This document shows, piece by piece, positions 25,149 through 60,767 of a stretch of 64,000 bases of DNA. This DNA is from Armatimonadota bacterium (lineage in GTDB: Bacteria; Armatimonadota; HRBIN16), in NCBI GenBank assembly GCA_026003195.1, contig BPGU01000005.1:129851-193850 (forward strand), given 5' to 3'. How positions within the stretch are numbered: the stretch's first letter is position 1; each line of letters opens with the position of its first letter. A model generated the notes under the pieces. It was not told the origin of the DNA. It did not search any database and saw only the letters and a list, made by a program, of their open reading frames with translations. The position numbers were made by a program, and so were the translations under genes.

Positions 25149-28100
25149 CGATTGGGAGCGACTGTACTCAACATGGGAGGATATCGCGTCGGCGGATGAA
25201 CGCAACGCTGCGTCGGTGTTACGTATTGGGCTGGAAGCGATACTGGAGGCGATGACCGACCTTTACCGGCAGTATGATGCCCTGGTGGAGGATATGCAGG
25301 CTGCCCATAACGCCATGTTGAGACAGATCAGCACGGTACAGACGCTGCTGGCGGACACGCGCAAGCGCATGAACGCCATATTGAAGTCCTCCATCGTGCC
25401 TGGCGGCAAAGGGCTGCATGTGCTCCAGGATATCTGTCTGCTCAACGGGTGCACATACAACTCGTTCTATGACGGTTATGCGCCGAACCCGGCTTTTATG
25501 CATGAGCCTTTGCGCAGGAGCAGGTTATCCCATTCTGAGGTGGTGGTGGACTACGCTACGGGCGATGTGACCGTAGAGGGCGACTGGTCCAGTCTGTGGG
25601 ACGGCAGTGACGATACCGCCGTGCGTTTGATAGTGCACTCTCCCGCTCCGGTATCGCTGGATAACTCCAACCTCAACGTGATAGGCAACTATACCGGTGG
25701 CGCCATTGTGAGGTTGCGCATTGGGTTCGGCGAGTATATCGCCATGAACCAGATAGTGCTGGAGACGGACGAGAAGGTGAAGGTGCTCGGCTACGGTTTG
25801 GAGAGCCCGAACTCCATCAACGGCTTGAACGTGTTTGCCGATCCGAACGTGACCGGCACGTGGTACAACGCAGCGGGTAACTATGCACTCACTCAATACG
25901 ATGAAGTCGTTGCCAGAAACGTGTTAACTCTTATCCCTGAGACGGAGAACGCCTTCGCCAGATACAACGCGGCGAACAGGGCTATTCCCTCCGGTTATGC
26001 CAGTCCTCCATATAGCTCGGGCATCTATCATTCCAGCATCTACAGGCTTCGCGTTCGGTGTCGGGCTCTGGACGCGCCGGTGGAGGCCACTTTCCGTGTA
26101 TTTGACCAGAACGACCGAACCTGTATCACTCACACGGAGGTCATACAGCCCGGGCGCGGTTATTTTGATGTGTACGCTCGTGGTGCGATGCCTAACTCCA
26201 CGCAGATAGGGGTAAGTATATCTGTCAAGCGGGTGGGATGGAATGCCGGTCGACTGCGCGTGCGGGAGGTCACGGTAGTGGACGAGTTCTTCCAGTTCGT
26301 TGTGAACCTGCCATACAGTAACAGGTTCGCGTTTCCCACGTATTACGTCAGACCGATGCGCACGATGACCATCACGCTGGGGCTACAGCACGCTCAGACC
26401 TCTCCTGATGGCGGTATAGACTATGTATGCACCATCCGCAGGCTGGATCTCAGGTTCCCCCAGTACACGAACACCGCCATGATGGTAGCTCCTCCTGTCA
26501 GACAGACCACGCATCCGATTACGGAGGTGCGCGTGTTCGTGGAGGGCGAGAACCTGGAGAACAGCTCCATCGTTGTCGGCTCGGACAGCTCGTTCCTGCA
26601 CTCCGTGACTATCCCGGCGTCTGAGGCTCAATCACCTTCTGGGGTAACGGTCACCTTCCAGCCCACTCTGGGATCGTTGCCACAACCTTCTGGATACAAT
26701 ATCCCGGTGCCGCTACAGTATGCGGTGGAGCAGTTTGAATACGGTCAGGAGTTCGAGCTATCCTATGTGCCCTACTGCAGTGCCTATGCGGTGCGCCAGA
26801 TGCTGGAAAGGATCGGCAAATACGATGCCAATCTCGACCTGAGCGAGGTGGACTTCGACTCGCTGTCCGAGATGGGATTCTCGCAGTTCCGGTCGCTTGT
26901 TACCACCGTAGATACAAACAGCGGTGAATGGTCAGGCACGTTGCTCGGTCAGAATCGCAACCTTCAGTTTGAGGACAATCCAGACTTCGTTGCCCTGTAC
27001 GGCACGCTGCCAGCCTCCGGAGGCGGTGCGGAGGATGTGGACCTGATTAACATATCCGTGCGGACGGTAGAGGGCTATCCGACGGTGGTCAAGAACGGTA
27101 GTGGCCAGCCGGGCGATAGCTGGAGCGTGACCGGTGCATGGATTTATAACACCACCGAGAGCGCCGTTCTGCCGCCTCGTGGCGCTGTGGTGCGTGGAGG
27201 AAGAACGTACACCAACCCGTTTGATTACCAGGCGCTGTTGTTAAGGGGCTATCCGCCGGGCACGAGCTTCAGCATTTATTCCAACCAGTTTACCATGGCG
27301 CCGGACAGGGATTATGTGATTCGTTACGAGATCAAGCGCGGCGATGGCGTTACCGGTACACCGGCTAACTTTGTCACCCTGTTCTATGACGGTAACCGCA
27401 GAGATTTGAAGTCCACATGGTCGCCGGATGAACTTTACTCTCAGGAGCTGCAGGTACGGTTACCGTCCAGGTCTGGGAACTATAACGCCACGCTGTTCCT
27501 GTCTACCAGAGATGGCGAAGCGCCGGTGATCAGTCCCATACAGGTGTCCCCTCTGTTCCGCTATCTGAACAGAACGGTGACTGGAGACTATGAGATCACG
27601 GAATACTCGATACCCGGTGGAGTCGTTCATACCGAGTACGTGCGCATATACATCGCATTGTATGGGGCTCCTGTGATATCTGAAGGTCAGCGCATCCGGA
27701 TTCCTGAGATATATGTGTCGGGCGCAAGCGGCTCCGGCTCCAGACCGGATATCACTATGTCTGTTAGACCTCAGGATTCGGATGGCTGGATCAACCTTGG
27801 GGCTCCGACAAACGCATCCTATTCCGGCAGCTCCGACACCGGCACCTTCACCAATCTGGAGTGGACGATGCCTGCAGGGTTTGGGAGCAGACCGGTACAC
27901 TACATAGCCATCCTTGTCCGCAGGAGCTCGGATACCGGTCTGACCATGACGCTCCGCATGAAGTTGCTCGGCAACAATGTGGGCAACAGGCTGGAGCTGG
28001 TGCGCTCTGTGGCCATACCGGATCCGAACAACGTGTCGGCGTCGTTGAGCTGGTCCGCTTCGTCGACAGACCGTGTTATCCGTTTGAGTGACAGGGAGGC

Positions 28101-29133
28101 GCTGTCCATACCGCTGGTTCTGAAGGGGTTTGGCAACAACTCCATCTCCGTCTACGTGAACAACCGCGCCTGGCCTTCGGATCTGGTGCGCATCAATGAT
28201 CCAGAGTACTTCGGTCCGGCTTCGGAGAGCGTGGAGCGTCGGTTGAGTCTGCTCATCTACGGTCAGGGTCAGCAGTTTGTGGTGGAGGATATAGACCTGG
28301 TGGCGAACGGAATGTTAAAGGACCATCCGGTGCCTGTAGCTCTCAAGGCGGGCAGACAGTTCCGCAAGATGTCCACCTTCCAGACCATCGTGCCCGTCAA
28401 GGTGACCGTGGACACTCCGTTCGGGCTGTTCAGACCGGACATCACGGGCGAGTTGCCCCTGTCCGGTAACCGCGAGGTAAGAGACGAGCGTCTGGAGCTG
28501 GCTTCGGACCTGGTGCTGGAGCAGTATGAACAGGACGTGGTGAGCGGACTCATCTCACGGAGCATCCGGTATGATAAGCCGGTATATGCCACCAGGTTCG
28601 CGCCCATAGCCCTGCACCAGAACGGTAATCCCAGACTGGAGTTAAGGATACATAAACGCTCGGACGGTTCGCTGTTCAAGAGGCTTGAGCGTCGCGACTA
28701 TGTGCTCGATCACAGGCGCGGTCTGATACAGCTTCTGGACGATCCCGGCTCGGACTATTACGTTGTCGCCGACTACTGGTTCACCGTGGTGAGCGAGGCG
28801 CAGCTCAGGGCGTATAACGAGCAGGTGCGCGGGGACTGGATAACCAGGAACAGGACGGACTACCTGTCTGGAACAATACCTTCCCTGAAGTCGCTTCGCT
28901 TCACCGCAGACGAGGTATCCGGCTATCCTGTGCTGGAGTACTACCATAACGGTAACAGGCTGATACTCTCACAGGAGATACCGCCTCCTGCCGATGCACG
29001 ATACGCCGTATCGGTAGCTTACTGGTATCTGCCGGTCAATCCGGCGGTGAAGGTCATACTGCGCCCTGGTTATGATTCCACGCTTGAGGTGAACGTGCCT
29101 CCCGTACTGCGCAGACTGGTGGTGATGACATGA
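25139..29133 (+). CDS. large structural protein (~1331 aa)
   Basis: ATG 25139 with GGTGGAG upstream. The ORF-track start is 25129. Confidence 0.7.
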
Positions 29134-38340: not shown

Positions 38341-38976
38341 GTGAACTATGATCACATCGATGATCTCGTTCGTCGGTTCCGTGAAGGTGATAGCGAGGCG
38401 GCGGAACAGCTCATACAGATGTTCCAGCCGATTATCCAGCGTGCTTTCCGGTTCTTGAGGCATGGTTATGTGGGCAACGATGAGATATTTGCGGGGCTCT
38501 GTAAGGTGTACGGCTCCGGTAAGGTGTCTGAAGGCGCCCGCATCATCGCTGACAGGCTGGGCACGCTGGAGGATGATGAACTTATTGCAGAGATACACTA
38601 CTGCTTCCTGCTGGCCGCTCATTCCAGCAGCAATCTCCAGTATGGGTTCCGCAGAAACATCGCCCGTCGCGTAGGGCATCTGCTCGCCAGGAAGAGACGC
38701 GACGTGATCTATCTGGAGGATATACCTTCAGACCATCCTTCCGATGATAACGAGATGGAGTACATCAACTGGGTGATGGGCATATCCGCTTCCGAGCCGT
38801 TTGACAGCCTCACCGAGGAGGAACGCGAGCTGCTGTACCTCCGCATCGTGCTGGAGAAGCCGTTCTCATACATCGCCGAACGGTTCGGCGCGGACGAACA
38901 ACAGCTGGTGAAGCGGTATCAACAGCTTATCAGGCGGTTGAAGGAACTCCATCTGAACACATCCTCCGGGAACTGA
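38341..38976 (+). CDS. sigma-70-like protein, divergent (211 aa)
   Basis: C-terminal region-4-like EERELLYLRIVLEKPFSYIAERFGADEQQLVKRYQQLIRRL. GTG start. Confidence 0.5.
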   Translation: MNYDHIDDLVRRFREGDSEAAEQLIQMFQPIIQRAFRFLRHGYVGNDEIFAGLCKVYGSGKVSEGARIIADRLGTLEDDELIAEIHYCFLLAAHSSSNLQYGFRRNIARRVGHLLARKRRDVIYLEDIPSDHPSDDNEMEYINWVMGISASEPFDSLTEEERELLYLRIVLEKPFSYIAERFGADEQQLVKRYQQLIRRLKELHLNTSSGN

Positions 38977-39417: not shown

Positions 39418-40398
39418 TTATCGGTTGATGGCGCTCAGGATAGGTTCCACACCGTACATCATCACGAAGTCGTCCGGCGCCATCCGACGCTCGCCTTCCA
39501 TCAACTGCAAACGTATGACACCGGCCCCTATCCTCCTCGCCAGTCTGTGAGCCGCTCTCGTTACCTGCACATTATCCTGTTCGCTGTCAAAGAGTACAAA
39601 CCTGCTTTTGAACCTGTAAATCTCGCAAATCTGTTGCAGATGATTCCATGCCGCCGTCACGCCGGGCAACGCCATCACGCTGATATTATCGGGCAGATGG
39701 TCTGCCAACACCATAGCCTTGAACTCGCCTTCTACCACAATCATCGTGGTCTGTTCCACCGCACGCGCAATGTACACACGGGCAGGATAGCCCTTCAAGG
39801 ACAGATACCTCGGCGTGTCGTCCCGGTCCAGCACCTTCCTGCTCCTGACGCTTATCACCTTCCCGTCCTGGAAATAAGGGATAATCACACGACTCGCGTC
39901 AAACACGCGCCGGAAGCATAAATCACCATACCTCTCATAAGCCAGACCGGCAGCGATTATCTCCTCACGGGAGAACCTTAAGCGCTTAATCGTCCTTGTC
40001 ACAAAACAGGCATCCGCCACCATGTAGCGATTGTGCCGAATACCTCGTCTATTCAGCTCTTTGATTGTCAACTTCTGTTCTGACTGTACAAAATTATCCC
40101 ATACAGCTGTGAGTATGTCAACTCCCAAATCGGTATCTACGGTATGGGATGGTGCAAAATCAGGTATATTTACAGTTACGTTCCTGGTGCCGTTCATGCC
40201 AAGCGCCCGCAGAATCTGATCTCTGTGGCATCCGGCGAAGCATTTGACGTTCAGCCTGTTCGCTCTCCATTCGATGATAAGACTGGGATCGTTATCGTGG
40301 TGGCAGGGGCACTGACTGCGGATGCGGTGTCCATGAACGGTGAACCGCAGACCGAGCTGTTTGAGTCGGCTCTGTATCTCCAGCCAGTCCATAAGCAT
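39418..40398 (-). CDS. DNA primase (CHC2 zinc finger + Toprim domain)
   Basis: Zinc finger CPCHHDNDPSLII...KCFAGCH. Toprim MIVVEGEFKAMVLADH...FVLFDSEQDN. The true start is probably the third Met (40390), preceded by GAGGAG. Confidence 0.8.
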   Translation of the reverse strand: MLMDWLEIQSRLKQLGLRFTVHGHRIRSQCPCHHDNDPSLIIEWRANRLNVKCFAGCHRDQILRALGMNGTRNVTVNIPDFAPSHTVDTDLGVDILTAVWDNFVQSEQKLTIKELNRRGIRHNRYMVADACFVTRTIKRLRFSREEIIAAGLAYERYGDLCFRRVFDASRVIIPYFQDGKVISVRSRKVLDRDDTPRYLSLKGYPARVYIARAVEQTTMIVVEGEFKAMVLADHLPDNISVMALPGVTAAWNHLQQICEIYRFKSRFVLFDSEQDNVQVTRAAHRLARRIGAGVIRLQLMEGERRMAPDDFVMMYGVEPILSAINR

Positions 40399-40402
40399 CT
40401 CC

Positions 40403-40816
40403 TCAGTATAGCATCTGTCTGAACTGCTCGATATCCATCACTGTCCATTCCCCATACCGGGACAGAACGGTCTCGCCTGGCCTTAGCGAGCCAGGCGAGA
40501 CGATTCTGCTTCTCCAGTCGGCATCGCCCTCACGACGGCGATGCAACACCAGCACCAGCATCTGCTGGTGCTCGTAACTGTGATGGAACACCACCACCAG
40601 CGCGGCGCTCAATCCCGACTCCAGCGACTGCTTCGCCAGCTTGTCCAGCATGTTCACAGTCAATCGGAACTGCTGTTTGCCGGTGGTCTTGCATTCCACC
40701 ATCCAGTCCTTGCCTATCCAGATGTCGCCCTTGCGGTAACCGCAACCGGAACCGGCGACACGTTTGCCTCCAAACAGGTAAGCCAGACGCTTCTCATGTA
40801 GTTTCCATGCATCCAT
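40403..40816 (-). CDS. PD-(D/E)xK nuclease, Hjc-like resolvase paralogue
   Basis: HEKRLAYLFGGKRVAGSG...GDIWIG...MVECK motif order. Confidence 0.5.
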   Translation of the reverse strand: MDAWKLHEKRLAYLFGGKRVAGSGCGYRKGDIWIGKDWMVECKTTGKQQFRLTVNMLDKLAKQSLESGLSAALVVVFHHSYEHQQMLVLVLHRRREGDADWRSRIVSPGSLRPGETVLSRYGEWTVMDIEQFRQMLY

Positions 40817-41285: not shown

Positions 41286-44087
41286 CTATTTGACCGGACA
41301 GGCGCCGGTAGAACAGTCCTCCTCATACGATGCGTTCTGTACACGAGTGGCGCTTAGCTCATACTGCTCTCTGCTGATGCGCTCCAGCGGCGACTGCGGA
41401 CGACTGGACTCGGGGAACATGGTCACTCCCTTCAATCTTGGCAAATAGAGCAACAGTAACTCGCGGATCCGGTCTGCACGCTGCTCCTCTGCACTGATGT
41501 TGATGGTGATGCTCACTGCGTTGTCCGCATACTCGCGCTGCACCAGCTCCTGCACGCGCAGGAAGTCCGATACGTCCAGATCAAACTGGCTCTCCAGCAA
41601 CGAGAGCACCTGCTCGTAATCGCCCAGATGACTCACCAGCCTGTCCACAGTGATATCCCGACACACATACGATACTACCGTCGTGTTGGGCTCGTTGATG
41701 GCAGACTCCACATGGTGGTAATCGCCACGCTCCAGCACGCGCTGTAGCTCCGTGTCGGAGTTGCTATACCGTACACGACGGATGTAGAACGGGGAATAGA
41801 GGGGCTGGATGCCCGATGTCACACCGGGGATGTTGTTGATGGTGCCGGTAGGAGCTACCGTGGTGCACTTGATAGGCTCCGCAATCCGCATCTGCCTGGC
41901 ATAACGACGCGCCTCCTCGCGCACCACCTCCCGGAACTTCCTGAGCTGACGCGCTACCCACGGTGAGGAACTGGCTTCTGAATACCGGATACCGTGCTTG
42001 ACCAGCCACTCGTGGAAGCCCAGGAAACCGACACCTATTCTCCTGTTCCGCTGCACGTTCTGCCTGGTCAACTCGTCCGAGAGCTCCGCAAAGGTAGCTC
42101 TCAACAGGAACCGGGACATCAACCGGAAGCATTCTACAGGGTCCTCCGCAAACGCCAGGTTCACATGACCGAGACAACATACGTCAAAACTGCGCATGTC
42201 AGGATAGCGCATCATCGCGATCTCGCCGCAGTTGTGACTGACAAAGCCGTTGGAGACGTAGCAGTGTGCACCTTCTACCGTGCAATCGTATACCTCCATC
42301 TCGCCCAGCGGACTCACCTGTTGCACCTGCTCCAGCCATTCGCCACGATGCTTCTTGCTCGTACGATTCAACCGGCGCAGACGCATCGCCTGACGAGCCT
42401 GCCGCATATACTGCTTGTCTATCCTCAAAGACCACGTGTCCAGCGACGGTCGGTATACCAGCACAGACTTGATGCCCAGCATGTTCAGATGCGCTTTCCA
42501 CCTGTACGGGTCCACTTTGTCCGGTAACCAGATGAACTCCGTGCCATCACTGGATTCCGAACCGAGTAGACTCAACATGTCCTGCAAGCTGTCGAACTCG
42601 TCGTCCGCGACGATCGCGCCCTGTATGACCACGCTGTCGCCAGGCTTCAAATCGGATATGGGAACCCATTGCTTTGTGCCGTCACGCTCCACCAGTAACC
42701 GATGGTCAGCAGTGGCTTCCAGACGCGAACCCTGCACGGTCAGTACCTCATACACGGGCTTCTTGCCGGTGCTGAAGAACCCGGAACTGTGGAAGAACTC
42801 ACCGTTATATACCGCCGTGAACTCGTCCCTCAGCTCCTTCACCGGCACCATGCCACGATCGGTCAAGACGAGCGTGTTCTCCGTCACGCACGGATTGGTG
42901 GAATAGAAGGTGGCGCCCGGCGCCTCGTCCACCTCGCACTGCGAGGCGTTGATGAATCCGGGCTCGCCGTTGGTCAACATGCCTTCTATCACCTCGTCCA
43001 GCACACGGTTCGCCCAGCCGTGTAGCGGATGCTTCCTGTTGCGTACCGCACGGAAGAACTCGTCGTCCACCACAACGGAGATGTTCGTCGTCCAGTGTAA
43101 CCGGAAGTCGCGCTTGCAGTGGATGAACTCAAAGATATCCTTGTCCGTCCACCACTTCATGGACATCCTGGCGGAACGCCTGGTGCCTCCGGCTATAACC
43201 GCCTGCGCGATGTAGTGGTCTATCTCCATATAGTCCAGACTGCTTAGCGGCGTGCCTGTGCGACTGTTCAACAGTCTGTTGATGCGATACAGCATCACCA
43301 TGAGCGCACCAGGTCCGGACGCCTTGCCCCCGAACCCCTTCAACTCCGCACCGTAAGGGCGAACGTTGCCTACATCTACCACAAAGTCCACCTCTCCACG
43401 ACCGGACAGGTGTAACTGCAACAGCTTCTCCAGTGCCTCAGCCCAGCCTTCACGACTGTCGTCCACGCGCAGGTAGTTGCCGTTCTCCGCACCGTCGTAA
43501 TCTACCGGATAGCGCGTGCTCAGCATGTCCCTCAAAGTGCGGAAAGGCTCGTCCGACTCCGCACCTACAGGTCGGTCTATGTCCTGATGGTTCGGGGAAC
43601 ACAGGAAATGAAGGTTCACAACGGTGTCCGGAACCCAGTAACCGTTCACCTGGTTCGGATTGGAATGGATGAACCGGTCGGAATAGTTTGCACCTACTCC
43701 ACCACCTTCCATCAACCGCAGGAAGGTGTAGGTGAAGTGTTTGTGGAACTCGTCGGTGAAATCCGCTACGAAGCAGTTGTTCACGAACTGCCGATACTTG
43801 TGGATGCCGGTAGCCCAGAGATGCCGACCGGCAGGGATGATCTGCATCGTCACCATCAGATGGAACAGCTTCTGGGGCTCCTCCGGCTCTATGAACCTGG
43901 AATCCACCAGACTGCAGTTGCCGTTGACTACTCTGGCACAGATGTCGTACCAGTCCTCTATACCGCCGTCTTGCTTGGCACGTGCATAGGTGCGACGGAT
44001 GACCGTCTCACCAAGGGGACCGAGATTCAATGGGATGCTCTGACGAGCCTGCTGAACCATCTCTGCAGTGATGTACTTCAACGCCAT
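41286..44087 (-). CDS. nrdJ: ribonucleotide reductase catalytic subunit (probably class II, NrdJ-like) containing an intein
   Basis: RNR core motifs reconstituted across the intein (STNPC|GEIAMMRY). C-terminal Cys pair. No NrdB-like gene nearby, which is the only basis for the class II guess. Confidence 0.85.
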   Translation of the reverse strand: MALKYITAEMVQQARQSIPLNLGPLGETVIRRTYARAKQDGGIEDWYDICARVVNGNCSLVDSRFIEPEEPQKLFHLMVTMQIIPAGRHLWATGIHKYRQFVNNCFVADFTDEFHKHFTYTFLRLMEGGGVGANYSDRFIHSNPNQVNGYWVPDTVVNLHFLCSPNHQDIDRPVGAESDEPFRTLRDMLSTRYPVDYDGAENGNYLRVDDSREGWAEALEKLLQLHLSGRGEVDFVVDVGNVRPYGAELKGFGGKASGPGALMVMLYRINRLLNSRTGTPLSSLDYMEIDHYIAQAVIAGGTRRSARMSMKWWTDKDIFEFIHCKRDFRLHWTTNISVVVDDEFFRAVRNRKHPLHGWANRVLDEVIEGMLTNGEPGFINASQCEVDEAPGATFYSTNPCVTENTLVLTDRGMVPVKELRDEFTAVYNGEFFHSSGFFSTGKKPVYEVLTVQGSRLEATADHRLLVERDGTKQWVPISDLKPGDSVVIQGAIVADDEFDSLQDMLSLLGSESSDGTEFIWLPDKVDPYRWKAHLNMLGIKSVLVYRPSLDTWSLRIDKQYMRQARQAMRLRRLNRTSKKHRGEWLEQVQQVSPLGEMEVYDCTVEGAHCYVSNGFVSHNCGEIAMMRYPDMRSFDVCCLGHVNLAFAEDPVECFRLMSRFLLRATFAELSDELTRQNVQRNRRIGVGFLGFHEWLVKHGIRYSEASSSPWVARQLRKFREVVREEARRYARQMRIAEPIKCTTVAPTGTINNIPGVTSGIQPLYSPFYIRRVRYSNSDTELQRVLERGDYHHVESAINEPNTTVVSYVCRDITVDRLVSHLGDYEQVLSLLESQFDLDVSDFLRVQELVQREYADNAVSITINISAEEQRADRIRELLLLYLPRLKGVTMFPESSRPQSPLERISREQYELSATRVQNASYEEDCSTGACPVK
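42231..42890 (-). other. intein (220 aa) inserted at the RNR active-site NPC|GEI motif
   Basis: Begins CVTENTLVLTDRGMVPV and ends HCYVSNGFVSHN followed by +1 Cys. Coordinates derived from codon positions. Confidence 0.85.
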
Positions 44088-44796
44088 ACCTCCGTTCCAT
44101 CATGGATGTAATGTAGTCTGTCAGATTGTCCAGATAGGGGATAAGATCAACGGGGCAGGAATCTCTGAGTCGTCTCAACGATACGAAGGTGTGCTCCAGA
44201 CAGCTGCTGCTCTCGCAATCGTCCATGACAGATAACAACTGCTGCCATAGCGATTTGCCCAGCAAGTCCATGATGTCCAGAACCGTCTCATCGTACTCGT
44301 TATCATTGTAGCCAAACGCGCTTTCCATGATGCTGGAATCCAGAAGCACCGGACTCCTCAACATGTAAGCGTTGTGCAGATGCTCCGGCAGATCTTCCAC
44401 GTCGTACCCGTTGCGCTGATACGCGCGGATGCGCTTGCTGATGTCGCGTGGAACAGGCAACTCATCCAGTACCTTGTTATACACGTAGCGCTTGACGTAG
44501 GAGACAAGATAGACGGCAAAGTCGGAGCCCCTGGTGCAATCGTACCGGTCTAGCGCTTCCAGCGCCGCCAGCCTCGCCCACTGCATCATGTCCTCACGAG
44601 GCACGCCCAGCGAATGGAGCGCCCTGTGCTGCCAGATGACCAGATAGTTCAGCAACTCCTCAACATTGCTCACATAACTCTCTAATAACCGAACCCGATG
44701 GAGCTCGTCATAACACCTGTGGTAACGCTCCGCCAGATCCTGCAAACATGGAGATATCCTGGTACGGAGGGTCTTGAATGCACTGCTCATTCCCAC
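44008..44796 (-). CDS. sigma-70 region-2-like protein (262 aa), possible third phage sigma factor
   Basis: WARLAALEALDRYDCTRGSDFAVYLVSYVKRYVYNKV resembles sigma region 2.1-2.4. Confidence 0.45.
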   Translation of the reverse strand: MGMSSAFKTLRTRISPCLQDLAERYHRCYDELHRVRLLESYVSNVEELLNYLVIWQHRALHSLGVPREDMMQWARLAALEALDRYDCTRGSDFAVYLVSYVKRYVYNKVLDELPVPRDISKRIRAYQRNGYDVEDLPEHLHNAYMLRSPVLLDSSIMESAFGYNDNEYDETVLDIMDLLGKSLWQQLLSVMDDCESSSCLEHTFVSLRRLRDSCPVDLIPYLDNLTDYITSMMERRYGVEVHHCRDGSAGSSEHPIESRSPW

Positions 44797-51741: not shown

Positions 51742-51778
51742 GATATGTCCCTCCGTTGCGCCAGTTTCTATCCTGCTC

Positions 51779-52020
51779 ATTTCTATCCTACTCAGGTATG
51801 TACCGAACTCAGCACGATGCCAGAGTGTATGCATACGGTATCATCAGTTTCTATCCTACTCAGGTATGTACCGAACAGCCTATGGAGGCTGCACAGCTCG
51901 CCAGACAGTTCGCATACAGATCGTTTGCGAACCGTGCGCTCTGCGCCGTGTTGATCGCTATCGCCATATACAATATCACTCCAGTGCACAGTTTCTATCC
52001 CACTTAGGTATGTGCCCAAC
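51779..52020 (-). CRISPR. mini-array: 3 variant repeats (51779-51808, 51847-51876, 51991-52020) with a 38-nt and a 114-nt spacer
   Basis: Repeats atttctatcctactcaggtatgtaccgaac, gtttctatcctactcaggtatgtaccgaac and gtttctatcccacttaggtatgtgcccaac. The last one overlaps the final 5 codons of the RNA ligase gene. Confidence 0.6.
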
Positions 52021-53080
52021 CTGAGTTCTCCATCTCACGTACCACGATCTTCCTTATGGACCGGTTGAACTTATCGCCGGTATAGGAGACCGTCCAGCGC
52101 CATGGCGGTGGGATGTCCAGCACACGGGCTCTGCCCAGCCCGGCATAACGCTGAGCCTGTTCCGTTACCTGCCGTTCCAGACTCTCTATCCGTGCAATCA
52201 GCTCTTGCACATGAGGCAGATACACCAGGAACTCCTCCACCTCGGCGACGGTCGCCCTTAACGCTTCCAGTCCGCCCTCCAGATACGTCCTCAGCATCCG
52301 GTTCGTGGTCATACCACGAACGCTTGCCAGTCGCTTCAGATACTCCGGCGACTTCAACTTGACGAGCAGGTTACCGTAACCGTGAGTATACTGCACCACA
52401 ACGCCTTCCCAGTCCGCATGTTCCGCCATCTCCACGAGCTGCACAGCCTCGTCAATGCTATACACGGGATACTGCTGTGGTAGTCTGAGTGGAGGCTCTA
52501 AGTGACTGTAGAACTCTACCGCCGGTATCAACTCCAGCGTGCTGAGGTCTCTGAGATAGAGTATTACCAGCGCAGGCTGCGCCGGTGGAGTGCACATGCC
52601 GGGTTGCCACACCTCGTTGTGTAACAACTCGGCAACCATCGTGTAGCCTTCAGGAAGCTGTATGCATCCACCGGCGAGCTGGCTGGCGATGACGGCAGCT
52701 CTTGTCCAGATGCCGTGTCGTGAAGCGAACACGAGTTCACCTTCATGATGGAATACCTGTATCATCACACCGTCCGCCTTCTCACAGACGCAACGCACGG
52801 TCTTGTCCGCAAGATGAGCCGGCGACGTCTCATCATGCTCGTTCAAGTTGAAGAACTTGACAAGCGGTAGCGACACCAGATTGTTCTCCGAATCGATGAC
52901 CAGCCCACGACAGACTCTGAGCCATGGCGTCCACATACCACGATAGCTGGCTTTATCGGTATAGTTCAGCAAGGTGAGGTTGCCATGTGTACGCACATTC
53001 AGTATCGTGGGATCATAATCGCCAGACCGGACGATGTGGATGGCCTCATCTATCGCCCTGCGGATCTCCCGTACGGTCAT
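52004..53080 (-). CDS. RNA ligase, T4 Rnl1 family
   Basis: VCRGLVID...LVKFFNLNEHDE... mirrors T4 Rnl1 ECRGIMFE...MEKFFNLNENP. Motif I KADG with no Arg at +5. EGVVVQ (motif IV) and LVKLK (motif V). ATG 53080 with AGGAGG upstream. Confidence 0.7.
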   Translation of the reverse strand: MTVREIRRAIDEAIHIVRSGDYDPTILNVRTHGNLTLLNYTDKASYRGMWTPWLRVCRGLVIDSENNLVSLPLVKFFNLNEHDETSPAHLADKTVRCVCEKADGVMIQVFHHEGELVFASRHGIWTRAAVIASQLAGGCIQLPEGYTMVAELLHNEVWQPGMCTPPAQPALVILYLRDLSTLELIPAVEFYSHLEPPLRLPQQYPVYSIDEAVQLVEMAEHADWEGVVVQYTHGYGNLLVKLKSPEYLKRLASVRGMTTNRMLRTYLEGGLEALRATVAEVEEFLVYLPHVQELIARIESLERQVTEQAQRYAGLGRARVLDIPPPWRWTVSYTGDKFNRSIRKIVVREMENSGWAHT

Positions 53081-53091
53081 GAACGTGCCTC

Positions 53092-53544
53092 CTAACCGTT
53101 TGGTGGGGCTCTGTGCTCGTTCAACCAGATGCATGCTCTGGTTACACCATCGCCGAACAGATCTTCAGAGTAGATAACCTTATCGGAGTGATACCATAGC
53201 CACGGATGGTACAGGTTCTGGTATCCTGTCACCAGCACGGTGGTCTTGCCCCACAGGCGGGCATAGAGCAACTCCATGCTGGTGCCGATACTTGCCCGTG
53301 CCATGATGGCGATGATGGCATCCGACTGTTTGAGAAGGCTGAGGTCCGACTGCACCAGCTGCTTGCAGGCTTCCCTGAAGTTCATCTGTTCGAGCAGTCT
53401 TGGCCAGATCTCCGGGTTCATGAAGTCCATCGGCGAGATGGGTTCCAGCCCATGAGACCGAACAAGCTCCGCTACCTGCTTGAACATCTGCTGGGGATCA
53501 TAGTCTCTGTGGTTGGAGATGGGCATTCCGATATAGACACGCAT
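53092..53544 (-). CDS. nucleoside 2-deoxyribosyltransferase-like protein
   Basis: MRVYIGMPI N-terminus and SIGTSMELLYARLWGKTTVLV resemble the NDT/DNPH1 family (catalytic Glu in the G-T-S-x-E-L context). Confidence 0.5.
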   Translation of the reverse strand: MRVYIGMPISNHRDYDPQQMFKQVAELVRSHGLEPISPMDFMNPEIWPRLLEQMNFREACKQLVQSDLSLLKQSDAIIAIMARASIGTSMELLYARLWGKTTVLVTGYQNLYHPWLWYHSDKVIYSEDLFGDGVTRACIWLNEHRAPPNG

Positions 53545-55299: not shown

Positions 55300-57366
55300 C
55301 TATACAATCAACGCTGAATTGCCTTCCCCCTTCTCCGGCTTGACTAGTCCGTACTCCTCCGAGTAGTCTGCATCAATAGTATACGAACCGCTTCCTATGT
55401 ACGATATCCTGTTCCCATACCACTGCTTCCATTCGAATGGAACAGGAACCAGTAGCTCCCTAGCTTGCAAATACCTGCCCTCGTCTGTCAGCTGCATGAA
55501 CTCATCGAGATAGCAAGCAGGAACGACGTCTATCGTACCTGCTATCTTTTGCTCGATGTCTTCCATTGTAGTGGTTATGTATGCTTTCATGCTCCTCACG
55601 TGATTCGAGAACACATCAAGCTTGCGTAGATATCTACGGTCCTGTAGCATGTTCTGATAGACATGGTTGACCCAATCCCGCTGGACGTGCCAGCTGATAG
55701 CCTGTTCCGATATTGCATTCAGCGTGTTCTTGAGGTACTCTTCATCGTAGACGTACTCCAGCTTGCCAGCATCATACGTCGTCGCTACATGCACATCGAC
55801 TATGCCGTGCTCACCGCGACGGTTGACTCTACCGAACCGCTGAAGCAGATCGTCAACAGGAGCTACTTCGGTATAGCATGTGTCATAGCTGATGTCCAGT
55901 GATACCTCCACAACTTGAGTGGCGATGAGTAGCTGAGGTTTGTGGTGCAGGATGTCGTTCTCTATCCGTGACCTATCCCTAATCATGAAGCGGGAGTGCA
56001 ATAGCCGTCTGGATGGGATATCGGAGAACGTCTGGTACATGGACACAGCTTGATCTACTCTGTTACAGACCACCAGCACGGACTTGCCCAGTTCCAGATC
56101 TCGGCGGATGAGAGGAATACAATCCTCCAGCGTCTGGTCCAAACGCTTCAGGTAGTGCCTGTCCGGCAACGCCACATCGGCAACAATGTGCTTCACGTTA
56201 TGTAGACGGCGTTTCAACTCGTCTACCAGTGGTTCAGGCAACGTGGCTGACATCACCATTACCTTGCCACCAAGCTGCTGAATCACATCAATCAATACCG
56301 TAATCATTGCCAGCGTACTGCTGTCGTATGCATGTATCTCATCGAACACGAAGCAGGCATCCTTCATCTGTACGATGCCTACTTCGAACCGCTTGATGCC
56401 GATCAGGTAATTCAATAGCTGATACGGTGTGGTTATCTTGACCGGCTTGTGCACCAGCCTGTTCAGGTTCGCATCCTGCTTAGCTTGCTGTGATGCCAAA
56501 TCCTCGTTACCTTCATCCATATACCTCCGGAATGCATATAGCATGTCACGCCCATGCACAACACCGACTTCATCCCCCTGGAACACACCTCGTTGAACAA
56601 ACCGCTCCTGCATTGCTTCAATAGACGATTGGTAAGGTAACACATAGAACAGCCGTCGGTTGCCGTTCCGGTTACGGTCATACCAGAGAAGGGCTGCCTC
56701 GGTCTTACCACTGCCGGTTGGTGCCTCCAGAATGAGGTTTCCTTCTGTCTCAGCTGCTTGTTGCTGGAAGCCGCGCGGTGAGATGTTGAGGTTGACCTTC
56801 TTGACCTGAACGGGCTGTTTCAGCCCGGCACTGGCGGCATGGTCTGCTGCGATCAGATAACCACGTAGCAGAACGTGATCCGTGTAGATACCTTCGTCTA
56901 TACCGTAGCGGAGGTACTTAGTATGCTCCACTAGCTTACGCACAATATCCTCTGGAACCGGTACAGGAAGCTCCCCGGCCTTATCAAGCACTATCCCTAT
57001 ATTGCGGAGGTGTGCAGAGATACTTCCCTCTGGCTCGCGGTTGTGTGGATGTTCTATATCTCGATGATGCGTAAGGATGGCTCCGAATACTGCAGGATCA
57101 AACTCCTCCTGCATGAGGTATATCAACGCTGATAGTACTTCGTGTCGGTAGTGCCACTTGAAACCACTATCCTCAAGCTGCCTTTGGAATCCGCTTGCTT
57201 GCTTACCGAGATCATGATAGACCGCCGCCAGATGAGCTCTCTCATCATCCGTTAAGTGCTTGATGTAGTTCAATACATCCAGCGTATGCTGCTTGAGTGT
57301 TGTGCCATCGGACTTAGCGAGGTAGCAATCAAGAGAATCGAACAGGGAAGAGTACCTTGCCTTCAT
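55300..57366 (-). CDS. cas3: Cas3 (HD nuclease fused to SF2 helicase)
   Basis: HD motifs HTLDV...AAVYHDLGK...FQ...IAADHAAS. Helicase motif I APTGSGKTEAAL, motif II DEIH, motif III SATLP. Confidence 0.85.
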   Translation of the reverse strand: MKARYSSLFDSLDCYLAKSDGTTLKQHTLDVLNYIKHLTDDERAHLAAVYHDLGKQASGFQRQLEDSGFKWHYRHEVLSALIYLMQEEFDPAVFGAILTHHRDIEHPHNREPEGSISAHLRNIGIVLDKAGELPVPVPEDIVRKLVEHTKYLRYGIDEGIYTDHVLLRGYLIAADHAASAGLKQPVQVKKVNLNISPRGFQQQAAETEGNLILEAPTGSGKTEAALLWYDRNRNGNRRLFYVLPYQSSIEAMQERFVQRGVFQGDEVGVVHGRDMLYAFRRYMDEGNEDLASQQAKQDANLNRLVHKPVKITTPYQLLNYLIGIKRFEVGIVQMKDACFVFDEIHAYDSSTLAMITVLIDVIQQLGGKVMVMSATLPEPLVDELKRRLHNVKHIVADVALPDRHYLKRLDQTLEDCIPLIRRDLELGKSVLVVCNRVDQAVSMYQTFSDIPSRRLLHSRFMIRDRSRIENDILHHKPQLLIATQVVEVSLDISYDTCYTEVAPVDDLLQRFGRVNRRGEHGIVDVHVATTYDAGKLEYVYDEEYLKNTLNAISEQAISWHVQRDWVNHVYQNMLQDRRYLRKLDVFSNHVRSMKAYITTTMEDIEQKIAGTIDVVPACYLDEFMQLTDEGRYLQARELLVPVPFEWKQWYGNRISYIGSGSYTIDADYSEEYGLVKPEKGEGNSALIV

Positions 57367-57955
57367 GCACTAAACCTCTCGCTTGCTGAACAGGTTGTTG
57401 CTTGCAATCGATAACAGTGAAGCTGCGTATGCTTGTTGGGTGACGCGGCTCGGTTCTGGTGAAGTCTATCGGTAGTGCGTAGATGGCGCCGAATAGTTCC
57501 AGCCGCTTCGCTTCGTCGCTATCTACTAATACACCTGATACCTCACCTTCTCCGTCGATGAGTTCTACAGTCTCTACGAGTTCGACAGTAGCGAGATCCT
57601 GGCTTCTGCCAAGTGTGAGGATACCATGGGGATTCTTCAATGCATACTCAAACTCTGGATCGATGTACAGATGCAGTGTTGTATTGTATAGAAACTCCCT
57701 GCTAACGATGTCTGTGCCCTTCTCGATTGCTTTGGTCTTGTAGATCTTCTCCACATCAATTCCACGCTCAGCGTATTCGAAACGATAGGCAAGGAACGAT
57801 ATCTCATCTGTGTCAACCCAGCGCCCCGCTGCGTTTCTGAGTAAGCCGATGATGGTGGAAGGTGGTGGCACAGACAACGTGGGCTGAGGTTTCATGAAGT
57901 AGTGTACTCTGAAGCTTGCCGTTTCAGATCTGATAACAGCATGTACAACTTGCAT
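57329..57955 (-). CDS. cas5: Cas5
   Basis: Hallmark N-terminal PTLSVPPPSTIIGLLRNAAG. GGAGG SD. Start abuts the degenerate end of the array. Confidence 0.7.
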   Translation of the reverse strand: MQVVHAVIRSETASFRVHYFMKPQPTLSVPPPSTIIGLLRNAAGRWVDTDEISFLAYRFEYAERGIDVEKIYKTKAIEKGTDIVSREFLYNTTLHLYIDPEFEYALKNPHGILTLGRSQDLATVELVETVELIDGEGEVSGVLVDSDEAKRLELFGAIYALPIDFTRTEPRHPTSIRSFTVIDCKQQPVQQARGLVHEGKVLFPVRFS

Positions 57956-57969
57956 TGCTGTAGAACCTC

Positions 57970-59416
57970 CGTTTCTATCGTTTCTATTCTAGCTTCCATC
58001 CTACTCACTTCTATCCTACTAAGGTATGTACCCAACTGGCTTAGGTATGTACCGAACTCAGCTCGTAGTCCTGAACCTCAAAGGTCACACCTTGAGTTTC
58101 TATCCTACTTATTTCTATCCTACTTAGGTATGTACCTGACCATTGCTGTATCTGGCGATGGCTGTCGGGGACTGGATTCGTTTCTATCCTACTTAGGTAT
58201 GTACCTGACTGATCAATCTGTAGACAACAGTGACTTCAACTTCACTGGTTTCTATCCTACTTAGGTATGTACCTGACGTGAGCACTCATGCCTGTTTCTA
58301 CCTTAACCTGGAGCTGTTTCTATCCTACTTAGGTATGTAACTGACTTGAAATCGCAATGTCACGATGATAACGATGCCTCCAGGTTTCTATCCTACTTAG
58401 GTATGTACCTGACCGCATTGGGCTGGTTAAGAACAGTAGCACGTTCTCCGTTTCTATCCTACTTAGGTATGTACCTGACTACCCGAACGTGCCTGCATGG
58501 TTGAGAGTGCCAGCGTTTCTATCCTACTTAGGTATGTACCTGACTGGCAAGGGTGCTGTTCGTTGGTGCTTCCCCCAACGACGTTTCTATCCTACTTAGG
58601 TATGTACCTGACACGATGAAGTAGACTTCGTCCCCTGCCCGCTCTGCAAGTTTCTATCCTACTTAGGTATGTACCTGACAACATCAGCGTGCGCCCAGTG
58701 CGCCGCGAGTTCGTGCGTTTCTATCCTACTTAGGTATGTACCTGACCCTTCATGATGACAAACAACTAACGAAACCAAAAGGGTTTCTATCCTACTTAGG
58801 TATGTACCTGACCGCGCCGGAAGAAGAGACGATAGTGTTTCGTGATGCAGTTTCTATCCTACTTAGGTATGTACCTGACACCTCCGAAGCCAGACTACTT
58901 CCGTGAGGTATCGGCGTTTCTATCCTACTTAGGTATGTACCTGACTGGCACGACGCTGACCAGGGTGAAGGGACAGTCGTTCGTTTCTATCCTACTTAGG
59001 TATGTACCTGACCTTTGCTTCACCCGTTAGTACGTCAACAATCCTGTACCGCGTTTCTATCCTACTTAGGTATGTACCTGACATAGCACGCGTCCTCAAG
59101 ACCACACCGGAATGGCTCGCGTTTCTATCCTACTTAGGTATGTACCTGACGAGTGTTTACGCTTCCTGTATGACCGCTTCCCGAATGGTTTCTATCCTAC
59201 TTAGGTATGTACCTGACCCGTACGGGAAAGAATACATACCTCTCTACGAAGATTGTTTCTATCCTACTTAGGTATGTACCTGACTGGTGTTCTCTGCCGA
59301 ACGCGCCATGATATAGCCGTGTTTCTATCCTACTTAGGTATGTACCTGACCACTCCTTTGTCAGACTTCACGTTTTCCGCGAATAGGTTTCTATCCTACT
59401 TAGGTATGTACCTGAC
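57970..59416 (-). CRISPR. CRISPR array: 20 full 30-nt repeats (58110-59416) plus a degenerate trailer (57970-58109), 19 spacers of 35-40 nt
   Basis: Consensus on plus strand GTTTCTATCCTACTTAGGTATGTACCTGAC. Transcribed sense GTCAGGTACATACCTAAGTAGGATAGAAAC (AUAGAAAC 5' tag). Degenerate repeats lie at the cas5-proximal (trailer) end. Confidence 0.9.
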
Positions 59417-59610
59417 CAAACCGACATGTCACTTGACTGATTAGTCATCAATCAAGTGACGCTAAACGTGTGTTTGAGTATGAGATAACTAATCACTGTG
59501 TTGTCTAAACCACAAACACAGTGCTAAATGAGTCGTCTACCTCCTTCGTGGAGATACCAAACCGGAGGTAGACGACTCTTGATGACAGCAGTCTACTCTT
59601 CACTAAGTTC
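59417..59610 (-). promoter_or_regulatory. putative CRISPR leader (AT-richer, two inverted repeats)
   Basis: Lies between the newest repeat and a solitary repeat. Palindromes gtcacttgactgattagtcatcaatcaagtgac and gagtcgtctacctcc...ggaggtagacgactc. Confidence 0.5.
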
Positions 59611-59654: not shown

Positions 59655-60767
59655 CTACTCTTCATCGATCTCCCGCTGATCTGCCAGCTCCTGCTGTTCG
59701 TTCTGCTCCTTGCCCTGCTTCCTGCCCTTAGCCTTCTTAGCAGCCGCCGCGGCTTCTATGGACTGACGTAGAGATTCAGCATCCACTGCACGCTCTTCCT
59801 GCTGCAAGTCATCGTAGAACTTGTCTACTAAGTTTGCAACAGCAGTAACTAGTTCCTCCATCGTGCTGTGCCAGCGTACGAACTCTAGCTGTTTGACAGC
59901 CTGCTCGTTGATAACAACACCAGGCACAGCACTGATGTGAAGCTCTTCCAGCAGGTTGCGATCACGCAGGTACTTCAGTCGCTCTATGTCGATAATGATG
60001 CTATCGTCGCGCTTCTTGAAGATGCCCTGCAGTATTGCGTTGCCATGCTCGACCGCTGTCAGCACCAGCACCTGAGGTGTGACGTCTGTGTTGTTCCTGG
60101 CGAGATTCGCACCGCCCTCCAGCAACGTCAGCGCCTTCAGCAGATCCCTCACTCTGCGCTTGCGCTCGTCCCGACTCAATGCGAACTTATCATGCGTAAC
60201 CTGCACTAACTTGTTCGCATGATTCCGTAACGTCTCAGCGTCCAGCTCACCGCCAGCACGTCCCTCGACGAGCGGAGCCTCGAACACGCCGACACGCTCC
60301 AGATCCAGCGAGAAGTTCGCAGCCATCCACGCAGAGTATACTTCACGCTGAAATACAGCGTTGTCGCCGGCAACCGACAGGACACCGAAGTCAGACACTG
60401 GTCGAGCATCGTGGATAGCAGACAACGCAGAACAGTGAAGTGGCGACGTGCGCTTGATAGCGTTGTTGCCCTTCTCAGCACGCATGTAACCGAACAGGTC
60501 GTCATCCTCGTGCTCGACTGGATCACATGCAGCGTAGCCATGCGCACCGGCACCCTCCGCCTTCACCATCTCATAAGTGGTCGGATTCCAGCCGAAGTGG
60601 TTGTACAGCACATTACGCCACCAGTGACGCCATGCTTGACCGGATGCGTAAGGGCGATTGCCCACCTTCTTGACAAGGGAGATCTGTCCGATATCCGCTT
60701 GCTCAGTCTTATTGCAGTTCAATGCAGCAACATCTGCATAGATAGCAAATGTTCCGGTAAGTTTCAT
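59655..60767 (-). CDS. cas7: Cas7 (Csa2/Csh2-like backbone subunit)
   Basis: RPYASGQAWRHWWR corresponds to the VPVISGEALAHAYQ signature of Csa2-family Cas7. ATGA overlap with the upstream gene. Confidence 0.65.
   Translation of the reverse strand: MKLTGTFAIYADVAALNCNKTEQADIGQISLVKKVGNRPYASGQAWRHWWRNVLYNHFGWNPTTYEMVKAEGAGAHGYAACDPVEHEDDDLFGYMRAEKGNNAIKRTSPLHCSALSAIHDARPVSDFGVLSVAGDNAVFQREVYSAWMAANFSLDLERVGVFEAPLVEGRAGGELDAETLRNHANKLVQVTHDKFALSRDERKRRVRDLLKALTLLEGGANLARNNTDVTPQVLVLTAVEHGNAILQGIFKKRDDSIIIDIERLKYLRDRNLLEELHISAVPGVVINEQAVKQLEFVRWHSTMEELVTAVANLVDKFYDDLQQEERAVDAESLRQSIEAAAAAKKAKGRKQGKEQNEQQELADQREIDEE

Follow-up and report, generated by a model that had tools for sequence, protein, structure and literature searches.

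A class 1 intein directly before the catalytic cysteine of a phage-type monomeric class II ribonucleotide reductase, with a probable vestige of a homing endonuclease

Introduction

An open reading frame in a contig assigned to an Armatimonadota bacterium (GenBank assembly GCA_026003195.1, contig BPGU01000005.1) appears to encode a ribonucleotide reductase (RNR) whose active-site motif is interrupted by a long in-frame insert. The locus raises three questions: what the insert is, at exactly which peptide bond it is lodged, and whether it retains the means to move. A preliminary description of the sequence proposed a 220-aa intein between the NPC and GEI residues of the motif, considered it probably too small for a full homing endonuclease, and viewed the surrounding element as rich in mobile DNA. 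These proposals are examined here for the window, that is the whole stretch of 64,000 nucleotides between positions 129,851 and 193,850 of the contig; coordinates below are those of the window.

Results

The open reading frame at 41286-44087 on the minus strand is unbroken and specifies a 933-aa precursor followed by a stop codon, which is read as a class II monomeric RNR (NrdJm/RTPR) that holds an intein in frame. Translation may start at the ATG at 44087 or at Met10 (44060); the public annotation corresponds to the latter (924 aa), and the gene is labeled 'hypothetical protein' in the public MAG. The N-extein (precursor aa 1-399; 42891-44087, minus strand) ends in FYSTNP and includes the RNR_Alpha domain, the RNR-II insertion (dimer-mimic) domain and Cys105. 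The C-extein (precursor aa 620-933; 41289-42230, minus strand) starts with CGEIAMM and includes the invariant Cys637 and the C-terminal pair Cys925 and Cys930 (CSTGAC). The extein scored 408.3 bits with TIGR02505 (RTPR), for which the curated cut-off is 340.05, and ~60 bits with PF21995, the dimer-mimicking insertion domain (cut-off 27), and the RTPR of L. leichmannii (1L1L) matched the precursor at 2e-57. Residues Cys105, Cys620 (the +1 residue of the intein), Cys637, Cys925 and Cys930 are invariant in all 46 homologues that were compared. As Cys105 aligns with C119 and Cys620 with C408 of the L. leichmannii enzyme, we take the five residues, by alignment and spacing and in line with the known cysteines of RTPR, to be the equivalents of C119, C408, C419, C731 and C736. 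On these profile and residue comparisons the host protein is a monomeric class II (adenosylcobalamin) RNR of the NrdJm/RTPR type, which both upholds and refines its earlier designation as a ribonucleotide reductase.

Computational splitting of the open reading frame delimited an insert of exactly 220 aa (precursor aa 400-619; 42231-42890), and translation of the junctions gave TNP/CVTEN...VSHN/CGEI in agreement with the Cys1, terminal His-Asn and +1 Cys that had been proposed. With a Cys at both junctions, there is one canonical way to divide the sequence, N-P / intein / C-G-E-I. It follows from these junctions that the +1 Cys of the intein is the thiyl-radical cysteine of the enzyme, so that a single codon (precursor aa 620; 42228-42230, minus strand) would provide both the nucleophile for trans-thioesterification and the catalytic Cys of NPCGEI. 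By this reading of the translated junctions, the insertion site is directly N-terminal to the catalytic Cys and not between 'NPC' and 'GEI': the preliminary description identified the correct motif, but misplaced the exact point within it. In intein-less homologues (for example, P0012 and P0014) the NPCGEI motif is contiguous, and 1214 phage RNR genes, headed by that of mycobacteriophage Bxz2, align as two pieces that skip the insert. A split intein or fractured gene was rejected as one unbroken open reading frame covers both exteins and the intein.

The N-terminal splicing region of the insert (intein aa 1-95; 42606-42890, minus strand) includes block A with Cys1 (CVTENTLVLT) and block B (EATADHRLLV), in which the T60-x-x-H63 motif takes the form T60-A-D-H63. 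The C-terminal splicing region (intein aa 183-220; 42231-42344, minus strand) includes block F (EVYDCTVEGAHCYV) with D202, and block G (SNGFVSHN) with H219 and N220. Residues C1, T60, H63, D202, H219 and N220 are invariant across 15 allelic inteins, and the presence of blocks A, B, F and G argues against a non-splicing domain. The insert scored 63.3 bits with the Pfam Intein_splicing model (cut-off 35.8), 30.4 bits with TIGR01445 for the N-terminal splicing blocks A/B (cut-off 24.5) and 27.4 bits with TIGR01443 for the C-terminal splicing blocks F/G (cut-off 15.6), and the intein assignment was therefore sustained by three profiles above their curated cut-offs. A single-sequence AlphaFold run on the intein was unusable (pLDDT 44.5) and was replaced by an AF2 run with an alignment of the 15 sequences, which predicted a HINT fold with a pLDDT of 94.5 and a pTM of 0.91. 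Foldseek searches with this model matched the Ssp DnaB, Mxe GyrA, Npu DnaB and Mtu RecA inteins with E values of 1e-9 to 1e-6, the Ssp DnaB mini-intein giving 8e-10 and being followed closely by Mxe GyrA and Npu DnaB, and also recovered viral intein-bearing RNRs, terminases and helicases. Overall the motifs, profile scores and predicted fold confirm far beyond chance that the insert is a canonical class 1 intein. Assignment to class 3, which is marked by a WCT triad, was rejected: Cys1 is present, and position F:4 is Asp (VYD-C) with the Cys one position later.

The thiyl-radical Cys is the most frequent intein site in RNRs (Dassa et al., PMC2677866). Of the 120 closest homologue clusters, at least 36 have an intein at this position, which bears out the earlier remark that insertion here is classic. 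The allelic inteins at this site comprise mini-inteins of 134-139 aa, inteins of 220-233 aa that form the clade of the window's intein, an HNH-containing intein of 241 aa, and inteins of 303-370 aa with two clear LAGLIDADG motifs and a match to PF14528. The intein is confirmed as real but ordinary, as inteins at this most often used RNR site are well known. As the intein sits in the catalytic loop, RNR activity would depend strictly on splicing. This dependence would suit co-option of the intein as a conditional switch, in which splicing is gated by temperature or by redox state through disulfides of Cys1, Cys+1 and Cys203, and active reductase appears only in suitable conditions in the infected thermophilic host. 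In keeping with such a switch, Cys1 and Cys+1 are accompanied by a further near-invariant Cys in block F (VYDC), and a diverged lineage has kept the intein. Other inteins with Cys1 and Cys+1, for instance Pab PolII and mycobacterial DnaB and SufB, are documented to splice in a redox-sensitive manner. However, the sequence offers nothing to tell regulation apart from simple selfish persistence, related elements commonly carry orthologues that lack the intein, and the site is simply the one that RNR inteins occupy most often. A regulatory role is considered unlikely.

The splicing halves are separated by a central insert of 87 aa (intein aa 96-182; 42345-42605, minus strand) that was predicted at a pLDDT of 86-96 to adopt an alpha-beta-beta-alpha-beta-beta-alpha topology (H96-109, E110-112, E118-122, H128-137, E142-147, E152-157 and H159-173), an order of elements that agrees with that of a LAGLIDADG half-domain. 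No Pfam match to LAGLIDADG (PF14528, PF00961, PF03161), HNH or GIY-YIG families was obtained at E <= 10 in the 15 clade inteins. Together with the span of only 87 residues, this result accords with the view that the intein lacks a full homing endonuclease (HEN). With regard to LAGLIDADG or HNH remnants, profile searches recovered no family, but the strings LLGSESSDG and LNMLGIKS within the central domain may be vestiges of one. The former is the only LAGLIDADG-like string in the window's intein. Its 'SDG' is placed by the AF2 model in a hairpin turn and not at the end of a helix, so that its likeness to the LAGLIDADG motif may in part be coincidence. The second string, LNMLGIxS in the clade, resembles LARLGIRS of HEN domain II in allelic inteins, and an HMM of HEN domain II gave a weak signal centered on it, with scores of at least 5 bits in 5 of 12 clade members versus 2 of 600 shuffles. 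An HMM of HEN domain I gave no signal above shuffles with the clade central domains. Alignment of the central domains with full-length allelic LAGLIDADG inteins by hhalign was not significant (probability 1.8%), and comparison of the central-domain profile with PDB sequences yielded chance matches only, such as antibody light chains at an E value of 0.5. Superposition of the entire intein model gave TM-scores of 0.61-0.73 with HEN-associated inteins versus ~0.5 with mini-inteins. Predicted topology, position and weak motif similarity suggest that the central domain is a vestigial single LAGLIDADG-type half-domain.

The GC content (0.568) and GC3 (0.741) of the intein equal those of the exteins, and recent acquisition signaled by a compositional anomaly was rejected on this basis. 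Moreover, every relative with at least 60% extein identity carries the same intein architecture. The compositional match and the shared architecture are both consistent with long residence of the intein in the gene. Nevertheless, inheritance has not been purely vertical, as intein and extein similarity matrices are incongruent among relatives and a recent recombination tract is evident in two of them. The intein of P0011 is 53-61% identical to those of P0004-6 although the exteins are about 50% identical, and the intein of P0008 is nearest to the window's intein, yet the P0008 extein is distant. In the loci L003 and L004, a tract of 95-100% nucleotide identity lies inside otherwise diverged genes and covers only the 5' half of the intein, which shows that intein DNA has been transferred since the short architecture originated.

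These patterns bear on whether the 87-aa domain might be a still-active endonuclease with a single LAGLIDADG motif that homodimerizes like I-CreI, which would render the 220-aa intein homing-competent. The incongruence seen with P0011 and P0008 and the movement of intein DNA recorded by the L003/L004 tract would be expected of such an enzyme, the central domain has been kept at similar length in 12 of 12 clade members, and the D-G of LLGSESSDG is retained in five of them. However, the 12 clade inteins share no conserved acidic residue where helix 1 ends. In a close pair of relatives the alpha1-beta1-beta2 portion, which would be the catalytic and DNA-contacting part, is near-neutral with a dN/dS of 0.64 versus 0.21 for alpha2-beta3-beta4-alpha3, and strands beta1 and beta2 are just 3-5 residues long in the model. 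The failure of LAGLIDADG HMMs to match even at E <= 10 points in the same direction, and a tract confined to the 5' half of the intein is more readily explained by ordinary phage recombination than by homing. An active endonuclease is accordingly judged improbable, and the central domain probably is no longer a nuclease.

Selection on the gene was assessed from relatives that carry the same intein: dN/dS values were 0.08-0.10 for the exteins, and 0.10 for the C-terminal splicing region of the intein in a close pair. The alternative of a defunct intein or a non-splicing insertion, which would make the gene a pseudogene or its product inactive, finds no specific support beyond the circumstance that splicing here is predicted from sequence, and is very improbable in view of these ratios, the intact catalytic intein residues that are invariant among relatives, the uninterrupted open reading frame and the conservation of the five essential RNR cysteines.

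The RNR gene is flanked by genes for a sigma factor, a Holliday-junction resolvase and a primase, a baseplate J protein and a giant endolysin-like protein are encoded elsewhere in the window, and the sigma-RNR gene order is common to L003 and L004. On this gene context the RNR gene is phage-encoded and the region is phage-like. No tRNAs were found. A glycosyltransferase gene contains a second intein, of 224 aa (10539-11210). A custom HMM scan of the 310 six-frame open reading frames of the window recovered only the RNR and glycosyltransferase inteins; the description of the element as mobile-DNA rich is supported in part, by the second intein, but gains nothing from further ones. A CRISPR-Cas locus also is present nearby, and CRISPR spacers matched nothing in the window or in the retrieved loci.

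Discussion

The locus is very probably explained by a class 1 cis-splicing intein in the active-site finger loop of a phage monomeric adenosylcobalamin RNR, in which the endonuclease has decayed and persistence has been mainly vertical. The analysis establishes the anatomy of the insert, its motifs, a fold prediction, its absence from homologues, the occupancy of the site and the pattern of selection; splicing itself, the inactivity of the central domain and its LAGLIDADG ancestry are what we infer. The 933-aa precursor would be translated in an inactive form. Cys1 would perform an N-S acyl shift, the resulting thioester would be attacked by the +1 Cys, the later thiyl-radical Cys, and Asn220 would cyclize with the help of His219 and free the intein. 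An S-N shift would then remake the peptide bond to give ...TNP-CGEI..., and the 713-aa reductase would work only after these steps. The homing endonuclease is envisaged to have decayed to one small alpha-beta-beta-alpha-beta-beta-alpha domain, which may be kept because its packing against the HINT domain stabilizes the latter. Within a lineage of hot-spring phage-like elements the intein would be passed on mostly by vertical descent, with occasional reshuffling when relatives recombine.

A functional role for the central domain, either as a minimal homodimerizing LAGLIDADG-type endonuclease or as a DNA-binding or splicing-assisting module, is improbable. In either form the domain would keep the 220-aa intein mobile among diverged phage RNR alleles, which would explain both the mismatch between intein and extein similarities and the tract of recent gene conversion in relatives. 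No single-motif LAGLIDADG enzyme nested in an intein would have preceded such an endonuclease, and a functional one-domain remnant would be relevant both to intein evolution and, as a very small endonuclease or splicing scaffold, in its own right. With the favored reading of a decayed endonuclease, the mini-inteins, one-domain remnant, two-domain LAGLIDADG inteins and HNH intein constitute a natural series at one site that illustrates late stages of homing endonuclease decay. The annotation of the gene should be changed to intein-containing NrdJm, with the surrounding contig region noted as phage-like.

The closest known parallels are the contiguous RIR1-type inteins of class I and class II RNRs (InBase 'RIR1' alleles), for example one of those in Pyrococcus class II RNR, which are inserted at the same point, likewise use the catalytic Cys as the +1 nucleophile and share the class 1 chemistry motifs. 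The NCBIfam model PRK08332, which describes an intein-bearing RNR of Pyrococcus type, spans the intein C-terminus and the extein junction (query 582-704 to model 1204-1334). In contrast, the sequence of the window's intein is very divergent, and its host is a monomeric NrdJm/RTPR in a phage-like element whereas the RIR1 hosts are cellular dimeric NrdJ or NrdA. A word-indexed homologue search with the intein alone as query found nothing, and in an exhaustive HMMER search only the splicing halves aligned outside its own metagenomic clade, with ~30-45% identity. The NrdJ-1 and NrdJ-2 split inteins from metagenomes (Dassa et al. 2009) also reside in phage-like class II RNRs at the NPC(G/S)EI active-site motif. 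However, they are split with a free-standing endonuclease gene between the halves and are located one residue further C-terminal, after the Cys, whereas the window's intein is contiguous and precedes it.

Progressive HEN decay toward mini-inteins, and a possible HINT-HEN mutualism, have been described (PMC8966425). The PhoVMA intein (PDB 7QST) likewise has a HINT domain in which an apparently inactive remnant of an endonuclease is nested at the canonical point of insertion, and PhoVMA and TliVMA gave the best query TM-scores among solved structures (0.61-0.62). PhoVMA (376 aa) retains both LAGLIDADG half-domains and an accessory domain, whereas the window's intein possesses one unit of ~87 aa, the size of a half-domain, and would be at a later stage of decay.

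Among phages of thermophiles, the Thermus viruses P74-26, P23-45 and g20c also encode monomeric B12-dependent NTP reductases of NrdJm type, and the g20c copy was reported with a likely intein (PMC6459318), although no close sequence relationship to the window's RNR was seen. The best extein matches in cultured phages are intein-less RNRs of cluster-A mycobacteriophages (44% identity). When the intein was compared with cultured phage genomes, the only matches were distant ones to splicing domains within RNR, helicase and terminase genes. The locus adds a divergent, probably thermostable Cys1/Cys+1 intein, along with approximately a dozen metagenomic relatives, to the catalogue for the best-known RNR site.

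An intein in the active-site motif of the ribonucleotide reductase

The ribonucleotide reductase (RNR) precursor is encoded by an intact open reading frame of 933 aa (41286..44087, minus strand). The preliminary description had proposed that a 220-aa intein, beginning with Cys1, terminating with His-Asn and followed by a +1 Cys, resides in this gene, and each of these elements was recovered in the frame. Delimited at those motifs, the intein spans 42231..42890 (minus strand), corresponding to precursor residues 400–619, and the translated junctions (slashes) are TNP/CVTE upstream and VSHN/CGEI downstream. Interruption of the active-site NPCGEI motif therefore stands, and the exact split that had been suggested, NPC/GEI, is refined without being contradicted: as the Cys is duplicated, the single rule-abiding parse is NP/intein/CGEI, with the predicted insertion point between the proline and the catalytic cysteine.

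The insert scored 63.3 bits with Pfam Intein_splicing (cut-off 35.8), 30.4 bits with TIGR01445 (cut-off 24.5) and 27.4 bits with TIGR01443 (cut-off 15.6). A non-splicing domain devoid of blocks A, B, F and G had been raised as an alternative; all of these splicing blocks are present. In an alignment of 15 same-site inteins, C1, T60 and H63 (the block B TxxH), D202 (block F), H219 and N220 were invariant. When 1.84 billion representatives were searched exhaustively with HMMER, 2328 proteins reached E ≤ 0.001; in almost every case the match was to intein residues 1 to ~92 and 183–220, the two splicing halves. The AlphaFold model built from the 15-sequence alignment (pLDDT 94.5, pTM 0.91) retrieved only inteins from the PDB with Foldseek, headed by the Ssp DnaB mini-intein (8e-10), Mxe GyrA, Npu DnaB and Mtu RecA, and the matches in BFVD were viral intein-bearing RNRs, terminases and helicases. 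RNRs of cultured phages, foremost that of mycobacteriophage Bxz2 (44% identity), align in two pieces without the insert, and P0012 and P0014 are among the metagenomic homologues in which NPCGE is uninterrupted. Overall, the insert very probably is a splicing-competent canonical class 1 intein with a one-domain homing endonuclease (HEN) remnant. Its removal would be obligatory for RNR activity, since the intein splits the catalytic finger loop and the radical Cys serves as the +1 nucleophile.

Both the full frame and the in-silico spliced 713-aa product matched Ribonuc_red_lgC, RNR_Alpha and the B12-RNR insertion domain PF21995, and TIGR02505 (adenosylcobalamin-dependent ribonucleoside-triphosphate reductase) scored 408 bits (cut-off 340). 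Among solved relatives, the monomeric RTPR of L. leichmannii ranks first (1L1L; 2e-57); the two-piece alignment skips the insert and places HN-CGEI of the query over TNPCGEI at residues 405–411, so that the +1 Cys corresponds to C408 of that enzyme. Across 46 homologues, limited to sequences without other insertions, five cysteines were invariant (precursor C105, C620, which is the +1 Cys, C637, C925 and C930). On the basis of the alignment, together with what is established for the L. leichmannii enzyme, we take these to be the five functional cysteines of RTPR. Judged by the family matches and invariant cysteines, the extein without its insert has the appearance of a functional NrdJm.

The central domain of the intein

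The centre of the intein comprises residues 96–182 (42345..42605, minus strand). No endonuclease family matched this segment in any of 15 related inteins even at E ≤ 10, which agrees with the previous proposal that a full homing endonuclease is probably lacking. The predicted structure (pLDDT 86–96) consists of a helix (96–109), strands (110–112 and 118–122), a helix (128–137), strands (142–147 and 152–157) and a final helix (159–173). In the model this alpha-beta-beta-alpha-beta-beta-alpha order is that of one LAGLIDADG half-domain, situated at the canonical endonuclease insertion point. Weak sequence resemblances point the same way: phmmer alignments to full-length inteins extend past block B into LAGLIDADG block C (LLGSESSDGT/LLGSLVGDGT); LNMLGIxS, conserved in a clade of 12 inteins with the same short architecture, resembles LARLGIRS in endonuclease domain II of 303–370-aa inteins at the same RNR site; and an HMM of that domain gave at least 5 bits in 5 of the 12 clade members versus 2 of 600 shuffles. 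Query-normalised TM-scores lean weakly in this direction too: they were 0.61–0.62 against the VMA inteins of Pho and Tli, which bear a HEN, and reached 0.73 in BFVD, compared with ~0.5 against mini-inteins. Counting against a confident LAGLIDADG assignment, hhalign of the central domain returned a probability of 1.8% and the 'DG' of LLGSESSDG is placed by the AlphaFold model in a hairpin turn instead of at the helix end; the domain profile produced only chance matches to PDB sequences. On balance the central domain probably is a LAGLIDADG vestige, to which the HEN of the RNR intein would have decayed as a one-domain remnant.

An active nuclease is unlikely as no acidic residue in the helix-1/hairpin segment is conserved across the 12 clade inteins, and because dN/dS there is 0.64 between loci L003 and L004, which carry the relatives P0005 and P0006 and are the closest pair with DNA available. 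The corresponding values are 0.21 for alpha2-beta3-beta4-alpha3, 0.10 for the C-terminal splicing region and 0.08–0.10 for the exteins. We moderately favor an inactive LAGLIDADG vestige, the better-conserved second half of which may be kept as structural support for the splicing (HINT) domain; HINT-HEN mutualism provides a precedent for structural retention of a HEN remnant (PMC8966425).

Descent and exchange of the intein

A 924-aa protein on a 202-kb contig of a public MAG labelled Armatimonadota, annotated as 'hypothetical protein', matches the window protein with 100% identity across 99% of the query. Relatives with 60–79% extein identity all share the intein architecture, yet intein identity is 31–46%. 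The GC and GC3 values of the RNR intein equal those of the exteins, which points to long residence in the gene. For the homologues P0001–P0011 and P0018, the similarity matrix of the inteins does not agree with that of the exteins: the P0011 intein is 53–61% identical to those of P0004–P0006 and the exteins are ~50% identical, and P0008 has an intein among the closest to that of the window and a distant extein. Descent of the short-form intein is not purely vertical, and the incongruence implies past horizontal exchange between diverged RNR alleles.

Nucleotide comparison of the P0005 and P0006 genes (L003:2031-4856 and L004:3844-6669) revealed a block of ~330–360 nt (gene nt ~1141–1500) that is 95–100% identical and takes in the intein's 5' half, in genes that elsewhere share 75–80% identity. 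The block has a dS of 0.02 (0.023), against 1.1–1.4 for the exteins, and represents a tract of recent recombination or gene conversion that centres on the intein. Ordinary phage recombination accounts most simply for the tract; an active compact endonuclease is a low-probability explanation.

Phage context of the RNR gene

The RNR gene sits in a phage replication module with a Holliday-junction resolvase (40403..40816), a DNA primase (39418..40398) and an ORF of 174 aa without known function. A small sigma-factor-like gene (Sigma70_r2; 44008..44796, minus strand), also part of the module, overlaps the RNR start by 53–80 nt, and a second small one is located at 38341..38976 (plus strand). The sigma-RNR pair keeps its adjacency and order in L003 and L004 as well, suggesting that this phage transcription/replication module has been conserved. 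Other phage genes specify baseplate J, a virion structural protein and a 2351-aa protein with SLT and VanY domains (1269..8324, plus strand; phage endolysin family phrog_20474, 2.4e-100). Giant ORFs of 1687 aa (14264..19327), 1232 aa (21450..25148) and 1334 aa (25129..29133), all on the plus strand, had no Pfam or PHROG match. The wealth of ORFans in the window fits a large and highly divergent phage.

A CRISPR array (58111..59418), in which 20 copies of a 30-nt repeat (GTTTCTATCCTACTTAGGTATGTACCTGAC) separate 19 unique 35–40-nt spacers, is located at a distance of a few kb from phage genes for structure and replication. It is flanked on one side by cas3 (HD, DEAD and Cas3_C) together with cas5; the opposite flank has a cas7/DevR-like gene and an ORF of 546 aa (coordinates of the cas-like genes: 55300..57366, 57329..57955, 59655..60767 and 60764..62404, all minus strand). 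None of the 19 spacers matched the window or the fetched loci L001–L004. The locus represents a type I CRISPR-Cas system carried by the phage, or else it marks a prophage/host boundary. A repeat-like 15-mer also occurs at 51765..51794, and a T4 Rnl1-type RNA ligase homologue (52004..53134, minus strand; PF09511, 1.5e-12; phrog_562, 2e-29) is located in the interval that separates the cas genes from the phage-like block.

A second intein in a glycosyltransferase-like gene

A second intein of 224 aa (10539..11210, plus strand) is inside an ORF (9780..11573) for a GT4-type glycosyltransferase-like protein with a C-terminal SEC-C motif, an unusual intein host. The intein starts with CLHSDTPVW, includes LTPEHRVL as block B and ends with GVVSHN followed by Ser+1. 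Curated HMMs remained under their cut-offs (PF14890, 17 bits; TIGR01445, 19 bits), and a custom N-terminal splicing HMM gave E = 6e-11. The FNxxK/SxxKxLEY sequence is contiguous in the intein-less homologues P0282–P0290. Close relatives possess inteins of 224–250 aa at the same site, where P0280 and P0281 have inserts of 379–381 aa, both with LAGLIDADG_3 and the former also with Intein_splicing.

Comparison with known inteins

Among the 120 best homologue clusters, 43 include at least one intein and at least 36 have an intein at exactly NP/CGEI, which bears out the view that this is a classic RNR insertion site; Dassa et al. describe it as the one most often occupied by RNR inteins (PMC2677866). 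Inteins there are minis of 134–139 aa, the 220–233 aa forms of the clade of 12, a 241-aa form with HNH_3, and 303–370-aa forms with LAGLIDADG_3. The NrdJ split inteins of the same study differ in being inserted one residue further on, and a phage NrdJm with a likely intein is mentioned for Thermus virus g20c (PMC6459318). With many occupied clusters and this literature precedent, the RNR intein belongs to a known type, within which it is a divergent newcomer.
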